From assembly GCA_015069195.1 (NCBI GenBank), contig SVJA01000001.1, positions 14,148-78,147 of the forward strand: a stretch of 64,000 bases of DNA. Direction: 5' to 3'. Shown piece by piece: positions 5,649 through 13,814 of this stretch. The stretch's first letter is position 1; the number at the start of each line of letters is the position of its first letter. A program made the position numbers and the translations under genes. Origin of the DNA: Oscillospiraceae bacterium (GTDB lineage Bacteria > Bacillota > Clostridia > UBA1212). Under the pieces are notes generated by a model. That model was not told the origin of the DNA, made no database searches, and saw only the letters and a program-made list of their open reading frames with translations.

Positions 5649-8228
5649 ATGAAATTCTGCAAAAAATTCATTGCGCCGTTGGTGTTTATTATATTTGTGA
5701 CAACCTACATATTGACATTGACTGATTTTGCGACAATATCAGACAGATTGCATACATTGAAAAGTTTTGCAACGACCAATAATGTTTCCGTTGCTGATGA
5801 TGTTTATGCCTCTGCTAATGATCACTCACCTATTTCAATTTCGCGCGGAGATTCCGTTGCTATAAGATTTCGTACCAACGAATCTTTTTCATCAATTACA
5901 ATCCACTGTCCGAGCTGGAACGACAACATCGGCAGCCTGTATTTTGCTATGTACGAATGGCAATCAGGCTACACAAAAACCGTACGTTCCACACCTGTTG
6001 CTACACAAACTTTTGAAAATTTCAAAGACAACGATGCTCTTACTTTGTCTTTCGCGGAAGTGCCCGCAGGAAACTACATGTTAGCAATCACTAATCCCAA
6101 CCCCACCGACAATATGGTAGGTGTATGGTACTATCCGTCAGAACATGACAAAATTGATTTTTATCGAAACGGAACTCTCTCGAAAGGAAGTCTGCATGGA
6201 TATATTACAACCTCGTCAAACAATATCGAAAACTTCTTTGCAAACAAAGTTTCAGTTGATGTCAACCCCGGAAACTGGGATGCCGTAGACGGACTCGGCA
6301 GAGAACTTTCAAGTGATGTTTCAAAGCGCCAGGAAAAATTTGTCGGAATGTTTTTCTGGACGTGGCATGACAATTTTATTGCATCAAAACCGCGCATTGC
6401 GTCTAAAATCGTTGAACAATATCCCGAAGCGGTAAATGATTTCAGCCATTTTGCGTGGGAAAACACACCGGCCGGCACTCCGTATTTTTGGGACGAACCG
6501 ATTTTCGGATTTTACAAATCAAGCGACAAGTATGTTCTGCGACGCCAAGCGGAGCTTCTGGCAGATGCGGATATAGATGTGATAATTTTTGATTGCACAA
6601 ACGGCACTTACCTTTGGGAAAGCGCATATACTGTTCTTTTCGAAGTTTTTGAAGAAGCAAAATATGACGGTATTGATGTTCCTCAGATTGCCTTTATGCT
6701 TAACTTTTCCGGAAATTCCAACTCAAAATACCAATTAATACAACTATACGACAATATTTACAGTCAAAACCTTTACAGCGATCTCTGGTTCTATTGGGAA
6801 GGCAAACCGCTCATCATGGCACATCCCGAAGCACTCGATGTAAGCGACTATGCTATAAGCACAGAAAAATACTATGCCATCAAAAATTTCTTCACATTCA
6901 GAAGAAATGTAGGTTCGTACTTTTCAGACGACACCTATGATTCAACTGATTATTGGGGCTGGTGTGCAAACTATCCGCAGACGAAACACGGCATCAGATA
7001 TAACGGAACGGTTGAACAGGTAACGGTTTCGGTTGCACAAAACTCTACTGACACGCAATTGGTTGCGATGAACAGCCCCATAGAAGGTATTCACGGCAGA
7101 AGCTACACAAAAGATTATTACTCCTACTCTTTTAAAAAAGCCGGTGAAATAGTTACGGTAGATTCCGATACTGAAAATTCAATGTTCTACGGTCTTAATT
7201 TCCAGCAACAGTGGGACTATGCAATTTCTGTCGACCCTGACTTCATATTCGTTACAGGCTGGAACGAATGGGTTGCAGGCAGACACGAAGAATGGGGCGG
7301 CACAATCAACGCATTCCCCGACCAATTCTCACCGGAATACAGCCGAGACATTGAACCTTCAAGCGGTGTACTCAAAGACTACTATTATTATCAGCTCGTT
7401 GAAAATGTGCGTCGATTCAAAGGAACGTCTTCCACCAATGAAACAGTCTCAAAAAAATCGATAAAACTTTCATCCGGCGCAGATGCATGGCACAACATTT
7501 CAACATCGTACGACGACTACAACGATAGTGAGGAAGGCCGTAACAGTAACGGCTACGGCGATATGTACTACACAGCCGACGCAGTCCGCAATGACATCGT
7601 TCATTCAAAATTCGCGTACGACTCCGACAACTTGTACTTTATGGTGCAAACAGAAAATGAACTGACACCATACACAGACAATAACTGGATGAACTTGCTG
7701 CTCAGCATAGACGGCGGAGGAAATAATGCTTGGGAAACCTTTGACTTTATAATCAACAGGACAACGCCGACATCCTCTAAAGTGACTATTGAAGCATTCG
7801 TAAACAATAGCTGGACCTTCACAACCGTAGGCACGGCAGATTACATAATTGACGGGGACACGCTCGTAATTTCAATACCGAAGACATTGATCGGCATCAC
7901 CGGCACAAATCTTCCTGTAATAAACTTCAAATGGATAGACGGTGTCGATTTAAACGGTGACTTTATGAACCTCTACGGCTACGGCGAATCTGCACCAAAC
8001 AACAGATTCACATACAGAATAGACACAGCAGAAGGGCTCGAAGTTGTAGAAGACATACTTGGTGATGTAAACGGCAACGCCGAACTCGACATACAGGATG
8101 CCGCAATCATCTACAGCGGTATCTCCGGGAAGAGAAAACTCGATGACTACCAGACAATCATTGCTGACATAAACACCGACGGCAAAATCAATATACTTGA
8201 TGTAATGAGGGTATTACTCTTAATATAA
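5649..8228 (+). CDS. Secreted putative glycoside hydrolase with a C-terminal type-I dockerin (cellulosome/amylosome component)
   Basis: Signal/TM segment MKFCKKFIAPLVFIIFVTTYILT. Central Trp/Tyr-rich region (FWTWHDNF, FIFVTGWNEWVAGRHEEWGG) suggests a carbohydrate-active fold. C-terminal duplicated Ca-binding segments DVNGNAELDIQDAAII and DINTDGKINILDVMRV form a dockerin. Confidence 0.75.
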   Translation: MKFCKKFIAPLVFIIFVTTYILTLTDFATISDRLHTLKSFATTNNVSVADDVYASANDHSPISISRGDSVAIRFRTNESFSSITIHCPSWNDNIGSLYFAMYEWQSGYTKTVRSTPVATQTFENFKDNDALTLSFAEVPAGNYMLAITNPNPTDNMVGVWYYPSEHDKIDFYRNGTLSKGSLHGYITTSSNNIENFFANKVSVDVNPGNWDAVDGLGRELSSDVSKRQEKFVGMFFWTWHDNFIASKPRIASKIVEQYPEAVNDFSHFAWENTPAGTPYFWDEPIFGFYKSSDKYVLRRQAELLADADIDVIIFDCTNGTYLWESAYTVLFEVFEEAKYDGIDVPQIAFMLNFSGNSNSKYQLIQLYDNIYSQNLYSDLWFYWEGKPLIMAHPEALDVSDYAISTEKYYAIKNFFTFRRNVGSYFSDDTYDSTDYWGWCANYPQTKHGIRYNGTVEQVTVSVAQNSTDTQLVAMNSPIEGIHGRSYTKDYYSYSFKKAGEIVTVDSDTENSMFYGLNFQQQWDYAISVDPDFIFVTGWNEWVAGRHEEWGGTINAFPDQFSPEYSRDIEPSSGVLKDYYYYQLVENVRRFKGTSSTNETVSKKSIKLSSGADAWHNISTSYDDYNDSEEGRNSNGYGDMYYTADAVRNDIVHSKFAYDSDNLYFMVQTENELTPYTDNNWMNLLLSIDGGGNNAWETFDFIINRTTPTSSKVTIEAFVNNSWTFTTVGTADYIIDGDTLVISIPKTLIGITGTNLPVINFKWIDGVDLNGDFMNLYGYGESAPNNRFTYRIDTAEGLEVVEDILGDVNGNAELDIQDAAIIYSGISGKRKLDDYQTIIADINTDGKINILDVMRVLLLI

Positions 8229-8232
8229 TAAT

Positions 8233-8288
8233 AAAAAAAGAGAGAATTCCGGTTTAGCTCCGCTAAAATGAATTCTCTCTTTTTTTAT
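8233..8288. terminator. Bidirectional intrinsic terminator
   Basis: aaaaaaagagagaattc...gaattctctctttttttat: an 11-bp stem flanked by an A-run and a T-run. Confidence 0.55.
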
Positions 8289-8449
8289 TAGCACAATAAG
8301 GAACATAGCAATTTTATCGAATTTTTCAACGAAGCAGTTCCCTCTTTACAGAAGCATAATTGCAACTTTTTATAGCAACAAATCAACATTTCGAACCGCC
8401 ATTCCATTCGTACAAAACCACTTTGCTCGAAATAAAATTCTCCGTAAAA

Positions 8450-10990: not shown

Positions 10991-11767
10991 ATGATTTTCA
11001 CTATCGACGTCGGTAACAGTAATATTGTTCTCGGCGGCTACAAAGAGGATGCTTTGCAGTTCGTTGCCAGAGTATCTACCAACACAAAGCGTACGGCAGA
11101 CGAGTACGCAGTCAGCATCAGAGAGATACTTGATATCCGTGGTTTCTCAGTTCAGGATATCGAAGGTGTCATCATTTCATCGGTTGTTCCGCATATCACA
11201 ACAATTTTAAACGAATCGGTCAAAATTCTCACGGGCATTGCACCTATGATTGTCGGTCCCGGAATGAAAACGGGTATAAATATTAAAATCGATGATCCGG
11301 CACAGCTCGGAAGCGACCTTTTGGTTGACAGCGTTGCAGCGGCAGCTCTTTACGAAAAGCCCTGCATAGTAATCGATATGGGAACGGCTACAACGATTTC
11401 AGCAGTTACCGAAAACAACGAAATGATTGGCGGAGCTATCATTCCCGGCGTCAAAATCTCTATCGACGCCTTGGCAGACAAAACGGCACAGCTTCCGCAC
11501 ATTGCACTTATTCCGCCTAAAAAAGTCATCGGAACAAACACAATCAGTTGTATGCAGTCAGGTCTTATTTACGGCAATGCAGGTATGATTGACGGCATTG
11601 TTGACCGTATGGAAGAAGAACTCGGACAGAAATGCACCATAGTCGCAACCGGCGGTCTTGCAAAAGAAATCTGCAACGTATGCAAACACGACATCGTTTA
11701 TGACGAGTATCTTATGCTCAAAGGTCTTTATATTCTTTATAAGAAAAACACAAAGACAACAAAATAA
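10991..11767 (+). CDS. coaX: Type III pantothenate kinase
   Basis: MIFTIDVGNSNIVLG N-terminus and overall acetate/sugar-kinase fold motifs are typical of CoaX. Confidence 0.9.
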   Translation: MIFTIDVGNSNIVLGGYKEDALQFVARVSTNTKRTADEYAVSIREILDIRGFSVQDIEGVIISSVVPHITTILNESVKILTGIAPMIVGPGMKTGINIKIDDPAQLGSDLLVDSVAAAALYEKPCIVIDMGTATTISAVTENNEMIGGAIIPGVKISIDALADKTAQLPHIALIPPKKVIGTNTISCMQSGLIYGNAGMIDGIVDRMEEELGQKCTIVATGGLAKEICNVCKHDIVYDEYLMLKGLYILYKKNTKTTK

Positions 11768-11827
11768 AGTATTTTTCAAAGTTTCAAATTAAAGGAAGCC
11801 ATTCTAAAGGCAAACAGGAGGTTTACC

Positions 11828-12427
11828 ATGAATAAAAAACAAATTCACGATTTAACATTAAAACTTACAATCACGGCTGTACTTACAGCCCTCGTTATTG
11901 TTCTTCAGCTCTTCGGTTCTGTATTCCGCGTTGGTACAGTAAACTTAAGCTTCGTACTCATTCCGATAGTACTCGGCGGTATTTTCGTAGGAAAGTCCGG
12001 GGGCGCCTTCTTAGGTGCACTTTTCGGATTGATAACACTCATTGCTGGTATCACCGGAACAGACCCGTTCACACATATACTCTTCACAAACAGTCCTGTT
12101 ATCACAGCACTCATATGCCTCGGCAAAGGCACTCTCGCCGGACTCGGTTCAGCCTGGCTTTATCAATTAGTATCTAAGAAAAACTCTTACGTCGCTACCT
12201 TTGTTGCCAGTGCAGCAGCACCTGTAATAAATACAGGTCTTTTTATCTTCGGTGCGCTCTTCTTAAAAGATGTAATCAGCACTAATTTTGTCGCAGAAGG
12301 TACAACATTCCTCTACTTCCTCATCATCGGTTGTGCGGGAATTAACTTCATATTCGAATTTATAATCAATCTTATTTTCTCACCCGGTATATATTCGATT
12401 GTTAAAGCTATAACAAAGAAAAAATAA
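11828..12427 (+). CDS. ECF-transporter substrate-specific (S) component, possibly a pantothenate/CoA-precursor carrier
   Basis: 199 aa with about 6 TM helices and the Gly-rich small-residue helices typical of ECF S units. Sits immediately downstream of coaX. Confidence 0.55.
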   Translation: MNKKQIHDLTLKLTITAVLTALVIVLQLFGSVFRVGTVNLSFVLIPIVLGGIFVGKSGGAFLGALFGLITLIAGITGTDPFTHILFTNSPVITALICLGKGTLAGLGSAWLYQLVSKKNSYVATFVASAAAPVINTGLFIFGALFLKDVISTNFVAEGTTFLYFLIIGCAGINFIFEFIINLIFSPGIYSIVKAITKKK

Positions 12428-12467
12428 AATTGTTTTTGCGAAAATTATATATACCTTATGCAAACAA

Positions 12468-12509
12468 AGCGGCAGTAACCTACTTTTTGTGGTTGCTGTC
12501 GCTTTTTTA
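12468..12509 (+). terminator. Rho-independent terminator after the ECF S-component gene
   Basis: agcggcagtaacc / ggttgctgtcgct: a 13-bp stem with two G-U pairs, followed by TTTTTT. Confidence 0.6.
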
Positions 12510-12712
12510 TAAAAAATCTATGAATTTATCCATAGACCACACACATATCCGGGAAATAATTACAGACCTGGATGTTTTATTTTTTTTGTGAAAAAGGCTA
12601 TATACAAACGTTTTTCACGTTTATAGCAGCATTTGTCGGGAAATATCCCATCAATCATTTACAATAAAGTCCATATTTGTTAGCATTTTCATGCGGGTTA
12701 TGACCCGTGGGC

Positions 12713-12952
12713 ATACCATAATGGTAGCAGTTACGCTCCTTGTGTGTCATTCTGTTTTTCCCAAAAGCAGTTGACCGAAAGGAGGTGTCGCTTATGGAGA
12801 AATATGAAATACTTCGTATTGTACTTCTATGTATATTCGATATTATTTTCTATTTATTACATAAAAAACACGAAAAGTGACTGTGCTCAAACCCGATAAC
12901 GATCGCAGCTACTTCTTAAAATTTACACACAAGGAGCATACCATTATGGTAT
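12713..12952. repeat. About 27-bp inverted repeats bracketing a mini-ORF in a 600-bp non-coding gap
   Basis: Left arm ataccataatggta(+8 nt)gctccttgtgtgt at 12713-12747. Right arm acacacaaggagc-a-taccattatggtat at 12925-12952, its exact reverse complement apart from the 8-nt insertion. Confidence 0.7.
12794..12880 (+). CDS. Hydrophobic mini-protein (28 aa, MEKYEILRIVLLCIFDIIFYLLHKKHEK), candidate type-I-toxin-like or small membrane peptide
   Basis: ATG with AAAGGAGG 7 nt upstream. One predicted TM helix and a Lys-rich tail. Enclosed by the inverted repeats above. Not in the ORF track. Confidence 0.3.
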   Translation: MEKYEILRIVLLCIFDIIFYLLHKKHEK

Positions 12953-13028
12953 CGCCCTTATGAAAATATATTACACAACACAATAAATAGTGTCAATGGT
13001 AAAGAATTGGAAAATCTCTTTGATAAAT

Positions 13029-13814
13029 CTAAATTCTCTGTAGCGGATTCTTTCCCGCTTTGCTCATAACAATTTCAATTTTATCGCCTATCATATTTTG
13101 CAATCTTTTGCACAGTGCCTCTGCACCCCATAACTCTGTCGGGTAATGGCCTGCCGATATTGTTGCGAAGTTCTCCATTGAAAGGTCTACCGCAGCAGAA
13201 TGTTTTACTTCGCCGGTCACAAGTACATCGATACCGTTTTCGTAAATCCACTCAACTTCTCCGTCATAAGATCCGCACGACACGCCTACCTTGCTGATTT
13301 TCTTTTCGATGTCAAATGCATCCGGAACAACACATTTCACGCCTTCCGCAGAAAGACTTTCATCTGCAAGTGCCGCAAAAGTCTTAAAGGAAACACTTTC
13401 AGGAAGCACTCCGTAACGGTGAAACCCGTCAGGTGTAGCTGTGACATTTATCAAACCGATTTTTTCTGCCAAAGCATCATTTACTCCGCCAGCTGTAAAA
13501 TCAAGATTTGTATGTGCAGAAAAGACATTTAATCCCATACGAACTATTCTGCAAAGAAGCCTTCCGCGCACGTTATCTTCTGTCAGATCCTCAGCCGGAT
13601 GGAATATAAGCGGATGGTGTGTTATCACTATATCGCAACCAAGCTTTTCAGCTTCGGCAAGAACCCTTCCGTCAAGATCGAGGCACACAAGAATCTTGCT
13701 CACATCATTCTTTGCAGAGCCTGTCATAAGTCCTACGTGATCAAATGACAACGCAAGGTCAGGCGGTGCAATGGTATTCATAATTTCAATAATTTCTTTT
13801 ACTTTCATAATCAA
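13029..13814 (-). CDS. Nif3-like dinuclear metal-centre protein (YqfO / GTP cyclohydrolase 1 type 2 homologue)
   Basis: About 260 aa with HH and E metal ligands spread as in the NIF3 family. Conserved pairing with trmK, as in B. subtilis yqfN-yqfO. Confidence 0.85.
   Translation of the reverse strand: MIMKVKEIIEIMNTIAPPDLALSFDHVGLMTGSAKNDVSKILVCLDLDGRVLAEAEKLGCDIVITHHPLIFHPAEDLTEDNVRGRLLCRIVRMGLNVFSAHTNLDFTAGGVNDALAEKIGLINVTATPDGFHRYGVLPESVSFKTFAALADESLSAEGVKCVVPDAFDIEKKISKVGVSCGSYDGEVEWIYENGIDVLVTGEVKHSAAVDLSMENFATISAGHYPTELWGAEALCKRLQNMIGDKIEIVMSKAGKNPLQRI

Follow-up and report, generated by a model that had tools for sequence, protein, structure and literature searches.

Between the gene for an ECF S component and nif3, the 64-kb stretch of contig SVJA01000001.1 analysed here (the window; win denotes its allele in comparisons) carries a 27-bp inverted repeat whose arms, lying 177 nucleotides (nt) apart, bracket a 28-codon open reading frame (ORF) with a strong Shine–Dalgarno (SD) sequence. 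This arrangement had been noticed in an earlier sequence-only reading, and the sequence, the ORF list and the pairing of the arms (14+13 perfect pairs, with bulges of 8 nt on the left and 1 nt on the right) agree with it, apart from the spacing between the SD and the ATG, which is 8 nt where 7 had been given. The flanking genes are convergent, a correction to the earlier context, and the gap between them (12428–13028) contains no ORF of more than 53 residues, in line with the previous statement that none exceeds 60. The repeat belongs to a longer conserved module (Table 1), a candidate pair of convergent genes, one for a small membrane peptide and one for an antisense RNA, that resembles type I toxin–antitoxin (TA) pairs.

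Table 1. Features of the module and its flanks in window coordinates, with the identity of relatives to the window where sequences were aligned (UTR, untranslated region)
Feature	Position	Strand	Description	Identity to window
ECF S-component gene	ends 12427	+	adjoins coaX	
nif3	ends 13029, start ATG 13808	-		
Conserved module, about 380 bp	12637–13016		between ECF S-component gene and nif3	
Plus-strand promoter region	12637–12692			86–89%
Predicted peptide-mRNA promoter	12658–12686	+	-35 TTTACA (12658–12663), 17-nt spacer, extended -10 TGtTAGCAT (12678–12686)	
5'-terminal mRNA hairpin	12693–12708	+	GCGGGU-UAUG-ACCCGU	
Left arm	12713–12749	+	local hairpin 12715–12727, 8-nt insert GCAGUUAC, anti-SD GCUCCUU (12735–12741), UGUGUGUCA	98–100%
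Small UTR hairpin	12752–12770	+	nested within the anti-SD/SD helix; from folds	
SD AAAGGAGG	12778–12785	+	8 nt before ATG	
SD to AUG				89–100%
28-codon ORF	12794–12880	+	ATG 12794, TGA stop 12878–12880; product MEKYEILRIVLLCIFDIIFYLLHKKHEK	
Rest of ORF				83–86%
3' UTR				78–84%
Right arm	12925–12952	+	on the mRNA, predicted decoy SD (AAGGAGC) and hairpin capturing the left arm	87–100%
Predicted antisense small RNA, about 100 nt	12859–12961	-	stem-loop 1, A/U spacer, terminator hairpin, U-tract	
Stem-loop 1	12961–12929	-	complement of right arm and flank	
Small RNA terminator hairpin	12915–12874	-	U-tract at about 12873–12862	
Small RNA promoter	12968–12996	-	-35 TTGACA (12996–12991), 17-nt spacer, -10 TAATAT (12973–12968); 10/12 consensus	
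Right-hand block	12953–13016			92–95%
Spacers on either side of module				25–56%

Conservation of the module

Exact copies of the flanking proteins lie on many rumen and gut metagenome contigs, and in eight of these contigs the stretch from the ECF S-component gene to nif3 matches the window exactly, seven covering the full 601 nt and one (L004) stopping after 179 nt. Relatives were reached through homologues of nif3 and of the ECF S component and then through their contigs. The module is conserved in at least five related lineages of uncultured rumen Oscillospiraceae (nif3 81–88% identical) and is absent from a sixth. We recovered the full gap in L038 (nif3 81% identical) and L048 (ECF S component 84% identical), its left part in L049 and L050, and its right part in L042, L044, L045, L046 and L047. 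In L039–L041 (nif3 76% identical) the gap measures 123 nt and holds one bidirectional terminator; relative to this empty site, the extra DNA of the window spans about 12511–13028. Among the three full-length species the third-codon positions of nif3 differ by 34–44%, and across species separated by that divergence the module is 81–100% identical. The left arm is identical in the window, L048, L049 and L050 and 98% identical in L038; the identities in Table 1 for the plus-strand promoter region and the right-hand block refer to L038 and L048, the former region being kept in L050 as well and the latter nearly identical in L042, L044, L045 and L046.

The arms themselves consist, on the left, of ATACCATAATGGTA (12713–12726), GCAGTTAC and GCTCCTTGTGTGT (12735–12747) and, on the right, of ACACACAAGGAGC (12925–12937), an A, and TACCATTATGGTAT (12939–12952). 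Each sub-motif occurs at exactly two sites in the window, and two or more matches appeared in none of 100 shuffles. Within the module, alleles can diverge sharply: L044 and L045 have an identical nif3 protein and small RNA promoter and strongly different small RNA stem-loops and ORF tails, L044 being the standard allele. The module therefore varies between strains, which suggests recombination or rapid turnover within it.

The conserved unit extends 55–75 nt past each arm into promoter-like sequence, and this argues against a miniature inverted-repeat element (MITE) ending at the arms, which the sequence-only reading had offered as an alternative. A MITE, or an invertible DNA switch with the 27-bp repeats as recombination sites, would fit a 27-bp inverted repeat with arms 177 nt apart, the presence of the module in some lineages and its absence in another, and the several short metagenome contigs that end, from both sides, between the arms. 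We give such an element only a very small chance. The terminal repeats of a MITE belong at the very ends of the unit, and the conserved and inserted block, with its two promoters, begins at 12637 and ends at 13016, well outside the outer ends of the arms at 12713 and 12952; no target-site duplication is visible, and both a pattern search and a covariance model find a single copy in the window. Scanning viral contigs for the pattern and searching plasmids and phages with blastn and tblastn gave no match to the element. An invertible switch calls for both orientations and a nearby recombinase, and the orientation is the same in all 18 contigs that carry the element in full or in part, with no recombinase or transposase gene within about 5 kb. 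Allelic variation within the module, moreover, accounts better for the contig breaks.

A predicted structured small RNA on the minus strand

The small RNA predicted on the minus strand probably starts with the A at 12961, and six sequences were aligned from this start. All six take up one common fold, in which a 5' stem-loop (AUAAGGGC-G-AUACCAUAAUGGUAU-GC-U-CCUUGU) is followed by a spacer rich in A/U and then by a longer second stem-loop and a U-tract. RNAalifold places 28 pairs in the two helices, 6 of them with compensatory changes on both sides; pairing holds in 97% of cells, as against 31–55% in slid controls, and none of 500 shuffles reached the covariation score. When the alignment is read on the minus strand, 163 of 168 cells are canonical, 23 of them G·U, versus 143 of 168 (25 non-pairs) with 3 G·U on the plus strand; it is therefore the minus-strand RNA whose structure is under selection. 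We built a covariance model on this alignment, which scores 107.9 bits at 12859–12961 and hits nowhere else in the window; a weak match near a dockerin-protein gene (8223–8346, minus strand; 16.9 bits, E about 0.4) probably represents no more than a terminator-like hairpin. The stretch to which the RNA is fully complementary comprises about the last six codons of the ORF and its stop, the 3' UTR hairpin and the right arm. As nif3 has no terminator of its own, the small RNA hairpin probably also ends nif3 transcription. Scanning 12300–13200 on both strands with Rfam 15 returned nothing at the gathering score, the best match being BsrG (RF01412; 16.3 bits against a threshold of 55, E = 0.22); a riboswitch, also considered, likewise had no Rfam match.

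Each arm had been described as internally palindromic. The palindromes are indeed there, and they are simply local hairpins, which on the minus strand form stem-loop 1. Could the two 15-bp palindromes (ATACCATnATGGTAT), which lie about 20–35 nt downstream of each promoter, rather be operators for a dimeric repressor of both promoters? Their symmetric placement below the two predicted promoters and their high conservation at the DNA level would suit that role. We consider it highly improbable, given that L045 has, in place of the hairpin part of the right arm and with it of the upper part of stem-loop 1, an unrelated sequence (CACCGCCUAUAGCGGCGUG) that still forms the small RNA hairpin. Containing G·U pairs, the hairpin is also imperfect when read as DNA, the palindrome does not extend into the adjacent 13-bp half of the repeat, and no regulator gene lies nearby.

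The peptide ORF and its mRNA

The plus-strand ORF is in frame in seven variants, namely the window, L038 (MDKYEIIRFILVCIIDIINYLLHNEHEK), L048 (MDKYEILRIVLVCIIDIIIYLLHNEHTK), P0156 (MDKYEILRIVLLCIIDIVIYLLHSRQKK) and, in part, L044 (..IILLCIVDIIIYFLHKKQKK), L045 (..LLYSIHKE) and L050 (MDKYEILRI..), so that the conservation in relatives by which the sequence-only reading proposed to judge the peptide is borne out, its hydrophobic core being preserved. In L046 a 1-nt insertion alters the C-terminal tail and makes it 4 residues longer. None of the variants departs from the window in the SD, the 8-nt spacer or the start codon, and the minimum numbers of changes at codon positions one to three are 13, 4 and 10, and are thus concentrated at positions 1 and 3. 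Of the 67 residues observed in the hydrophobic core (residues 6–22, rich in I, L, V and F), 66 are hydrophobic, the exception being N19 in L038. Every variant that covers them shares M-[DE]-KYEI-x-R, C13, D16, Y20 and H23, save for a Y at position 23 in the partial L045. The tail varies (HKKHEK, HNEHEK, HNEHTK, HSRQKK, YSIHKE), which removes the Lys/His tail previously taken as a feature of the peptide: its AAA AAA codons are the complement of the U-tract of the antisense RNA terminator, and a Lys-rich tail occurs only in alleles with a strong U-tract. Taken together, these patterns support a translated peptide, with reservations that concern the variable tail, the net charge and the Asp in the helix.

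P0156, a JGI protein of 145 residues, was the sole match of an exhaustive HMMER protein search. It is a spurious ORF that, in a relative, reads through a conserved box and the plus-strand promoter, then through the 5' hairpin and the left arm, and on across the real 28-residue ORF. Profile searches with the peptide found no family in Pfam, NCBIfam or PADLOC at E values up to 10, its matches in PHROGs were at chance level, and a word-indexed protein search with a 46-residue extended ORF found no homologue.

Both promoters come from a consensus scan and are conserved in four to seven relatives. The mRNA would start near 12693, at the foot of a 5'-terminal hairpin that is present in the minimum-free-energy folds of four species and has an invariant stem, a variable loop (UAUG, UGUA, UACA, UGCG) and a closing pair that is G·U in the window where relatives have A-U. 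In P0156, the residues SRATARG would imply a stem CGNGC/GCNCG and with it a compensatory change from U-A to C-G. Downstream, the small UTR hairpin is kept in relatives with one-sided changes (U·G to U-A) and an indel in the loop.

The minus-strand RNA might alone be functional, either independent or derived from the 3' UTR and terminator of nif3, with the ORF untranslated, the left arm a copy or mimic of stem-loop 1, and the plus transcript a non-coding antisense regulator or sponge. The strongest structural evidence does lie on the minus strand, nif3 has no terminator before the small RNA, and the third codon positions of the ORF diverge less than the neutral expectation, which could reflect constraint at the nucleotide level. 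Still, we judge this quite improbable, as the SD, spacer and ATG are invariant and the ORF stays open in seven variants, the second codon positions are conserved together with the hydrophobicity of the core, and the 8-nt insert of the left arm matches the spacer between SD and AUG, a match that makes sense only under translation control.

Predicted alternative folds of the mRNA

Folding of both strands, a check proposed earlier and made here on 12690–12965, gave z-scores against shuffles of −6.3 (plus) and −8.1 (minus). On the plus strand the left arm has two partners, the right arm (−39.7 kcal/mol) and the region from SD to AUG at 12771–12793 (−17.4 kcal/mol). In nascent, 3'-truncated or 3'-constrained RNA it pairs with the initiation region, GUCA with UGAC, GCUCCUU with AAGGAG, and the 8-nt insert with the spacer between SD and AUG. 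In the three full-length species the SD is unpaired 43–58% of the time in the full-length RNA versus 2–15% when the 3' part is blocked or missing, always with the same anti-SD partners, and the fold of the nascent UTR is alike in four species, the 5' UTR of L050 included. The earlier proposal that the long-range pairing sequesters the ribosome-binding site is thereby turned around: what the long helix is predicted to sequester is the left-arm anti-SD GCUCCUU, which otherwise pairs with the true SD. The right arm and its flank (AAGGAGC..GGUAUCGCCCUUAUG) resemble the true initiation region (AAGGAGGUGUCGCUUAUG), and would for that reason behave as a decoy. After the decoy SD stands a tiny ORF (12946–12963; MVSPL, stop), kept in L038 (MVLPL), L048 and L046 and lost in L045, that is probably a by-product of this similarity.

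We posit, tentatively, a switch of three states in which a 5' anti-SD closes the mRNA, a 3' decoy SD opens it and an antisense mimic closes it again. On the nascent mRNA, the left arm (AGUUAC-GCUCCUU-GUGUGUCA) would pair with UGACC...AAGGAGGUGUCGCU, so that the region from SD to AUG is occluded and co-transcriptional translation is blocked. Once transcribed, the right arm, with its 14+13-bp complement and the decoy SD, would capture the left arm, closing the ends of the mRNA on each other and freeing the true SD. The repeat being inverted, the 5' stem-loop of the small RNA has the sequence of the left arm and would compete for the right arm; by binding the right arm and the 3' UTR it would return the anti-SD to the true SD, and the resulting duplex of about 100 bp would be a likely substrate of RNase III. 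Under this scheme the inverted repeat would be the footprint that an 'anti-anti-SD' and its mimic leave in the DNA. That such a switch operates here, and that it is new among type I systems, we regard as possible and rather doubtful.

The alleles speak to the long-range helix to a limited extent. A single change in the right arm of L038 gives U·G in the plus-strand helix and C·A in the small RNA hairpin, and so weakly favours the helix. Compensatory double changes are lacking because the left arm is invariant and the contig of L045, the sole informative allele, does not include the left half. We sought that half through P0045, a partial ECF S-component protein, and the DNA downstream on its contig is unrelated. 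On contig L051 (525–781) a homologue of the ECF S component (87% identical), of which the C-terminal 139 residues are encoded, is followed by sequence unrelated to the module or nif3, which may reflect a different gene order or a chimeric assembly. If the left arm of an L045-type allele reads ACCGCCTATAGCGGCGT, covariation would prove the long-range helix; if it keeps ATACCATAATGGTA, the inner anti-SD/decoy-SD helix of 9–13 bp alone would matter. Besides the 3' overlap, nt 1–14 and 27–31 of the small RNA are complementary to 12779–12795 (by eye about 12+5 bp, interrupted, and requiring stem-loop 1 to open), and duplex prediction of the small RNA against the 5' UTR, dominated by unrealistically long loops, was not meaningfully better than shuffles.

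Weighing a toxin–antitoxin-like reading

With moderate confidence we read the repeat as part of a chromosomal gene pair, a type I TA-like module of an uncatalogued family. From about 12693 the plus strand would encode a 28-residue single-helix membrane peptide, and the minus strand would supply, from a near-consensus promoter, a convergent antisense RNA of about 100 nt reaching from 12961 to about 12859. The general features of a type I system are matched by a small (28, i.e. <60 residues) hydrophobic peptide with a predicted transmembrane helix, by a predicted antisense RNA that pairs with the mRNA and shows a promoter, a terminator, covariation and strand-specific G·U pairs, and by an anti-SD in the mRNA that is predicted in silico to sequester the SD in four species. 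The toxin-like character proposed by the sequence-only reading is partly upheld: it gains support from the peptide, the SD and the start codon, all conserved, and from a predicted convergent antisense RNA gene over the 3' end of the ORF that had gone unseen; the role assigned to the repeat is what changes. The analysis shows how the module is built and conserved, that the small RNA structure has covariation, that the ORF is conserved and, in silico, that alternative folds exist. Transcription of both RNAs is likely from their sequence signals, and the peptide may be toxic.

Several points weigh against this reading. In Rfam, Pfam, NCBIfam, PADLOC and PHROGs the module shows no homology to any catalogued toxin or antitoxin RNA. 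It is single-copy in every sequence that could be checked, and most chromosomal type I families are multi-copy. In not being cationic (net charge about 0 to −2) and in having the invariant Asp16 inside the helix, the peptide departs from most type I toxins. The plus-strand RNA has no convincing intrinsic terminator after the right arm. The signals for transcription are predicted ones, the alleles hold no compensatory double change for the long-range helix, and the direction of the switch, with the full-length RNA open until the antisense RNA closes it, is inverted relative to hok and aapA and is a prediction of thermodynamic folding.

Some of these points would sit equally well with a non-toxic small membrane protein of the same anatomy, for instance one that modulates the adjacent ECF S component under ordinary antisense regulation. 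Such a protein would be consistent with the near-neutral or negative charge, with the fixed position of a single-copy module beside a transporter gene and with the missing homology to known toxins, and the invariant Asp16, Cys13, Tyr20 and His23 suggest a specific interaction over generic membrane damage. We think it unlikely nonetheless. Occlusion of the SD in several tight layers, a convergent antisense promoter stronger than that of the mRNA, and presence or absence between close lineages are typical of type I systems, and alleles differ between strains with an identical nif3 protein (L044 and L045).

Read as a type I TA-like module, the locus would show that a gap seemingly empty to gene callers holds two genes, and that a database protein, P0156, is a read-through across the module in a relative. 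To our knowledge no such module is known from this uncultured clade of cellulolytic rumen Oscillospiraceae, and targeted literature searches found none for it. If confirmed, the module would add a new peptide and small RNA family to the type I TA-like modules.

Flanking genes and further observations

The neighbourhood consists of coaX, the ECF S-component gene, nif3, trmK and genes for POR subunits. At 10991–12427 the gene for the ECF S component comes directly after coaX (type III pantothenate kinase), an adjacency that suggests a pantothenate-specific, PanT-like S component; Pfam backs the generic ECF_trnsprt family only. For nif3 the mechanical ORF list (13029–13814, minus strand) places the start at TTG 13814; we adopt ATG 13808 (259 residues), used by public gene calls, because only that form gives an exact-match look-up. 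In the lineage without the module (L039–L041), an additional gene of the RhuM family (PF13310), at about 2170–3240 in L039, stands between trmK and the POR operon; the window species does not have it, which makes a second presence/absence difference in the neighbourhood. About 90 nt upstream of the plus-strand promoter, a conserved box CCGGGAAATAATTAC (12551–12567), 82–88% identical in L038 and L048 and read as REIIT in P0156, stands among unalignable spacers, and a related motif, GGAAATAT (12637–12648), lies just upstream of the -35 element; the two may serve to bind a regulator or may belong to another promoter. A nif3 scan of representative genome contigs, a set without this species or close relatives, reached a best identity of 39%, and scanning metagenome contigs (a set without the source species) for the arm pattern gave a single chance match inside a fabI-like gene.

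Comparison with known systems

In layout the module resembles fst/RNA II (par) of the Enterococcus faecalis plasmid pAD1, with convergent genes, a shared terminator hairpin, repeats near both 5' ends and a peptide about 30 residues long. As DNA the par repeats are direct, which makes the two par RNAs complementary at their 5' ends. Those of the module, in contrast, are inverted, which would make the two RNA 5' ends identical, and its shared hairpin has a U-tract on the minus strand only; Pfam, which would include the Fst toxin family, gave no match to the peptide at E values up to 10. In sprA1/SprA1AS of Staphylococcus aureus, too, an antisense RNA overlaps the 3' end and has a free 5' domain that can pair with the initiation region of the toxin. 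In the module the corresponding trans pairing would be interrupted (about 12+5 bp by eye) and would need stem-loop 1 of the small RNA itself to be opened.

With its convergent genes, overlapping 3' ends, hydrophobic peptide and occlusion of the SD, the module has the layout of type I TA systems of Firmicutes. Comparable in organization are bsrG/SR4, txpA/RatA, bsrE/SR5 and yonT/SR6 of Bacillus subtilis (PMC3834814, PMC6562991), in which the mRNA of a small hydrophobic peptide and a convergent antisense RNA of about 100–200 nt overlap at their 3' ends. SR4 binding at the 3' end of bsrG mRNA extends the SD-sequestering helix (PMC3834814), and the same coupling, shown for SR4, is predicted here: when the antitoxin binds at the 3' end, the helix that sequesters the SD at the 5' end becomes stronger. 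The module nevertheless has no similarity to bsrG/SR4 in sequence or by covariance model (RF01412, 16.3 bits versus 55). Its coupling would work through a 27-bp helix joining the 5' end to the 3' end, with the decoy SD as the 3' strand, its antisense 5' stem-loop copies the mRNA's own 5' arm, and its peptide is shorter (28 residues) and not cationic.

Anti-SD hairpins and long-distance interactions of the 5' end with the 3' end are hallmarks of type I toxin mRNAs (PMC6733600), and in hok/sok of plasmid R1 and aapA/IsoA of Helicobacter pylori (PMC6733600, PMC5416894) such an interaction closes the ends of the mRNA while local anti-SD hairpins block nascent translation, as we predict for the module. 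In contrast to the module, the antisense RNA of these systems overlaps the 5' end and not the 3' end. In hok and aapA it is the SD that the long-distance interaction sequesters, and the full-length RNA stays inert until trimming of its 3' end activates it; the long helix of the module is predicted to hide the anti-SD, so that the full-length RNA would be open and loss or occupation of the 3' arm would close it. If confirmed, the module would represent a compact natural form of translational control by a competing 3' decoy SD, an anti-SD and an antisense mimic, with a logic opposite to that of hok and aapA.

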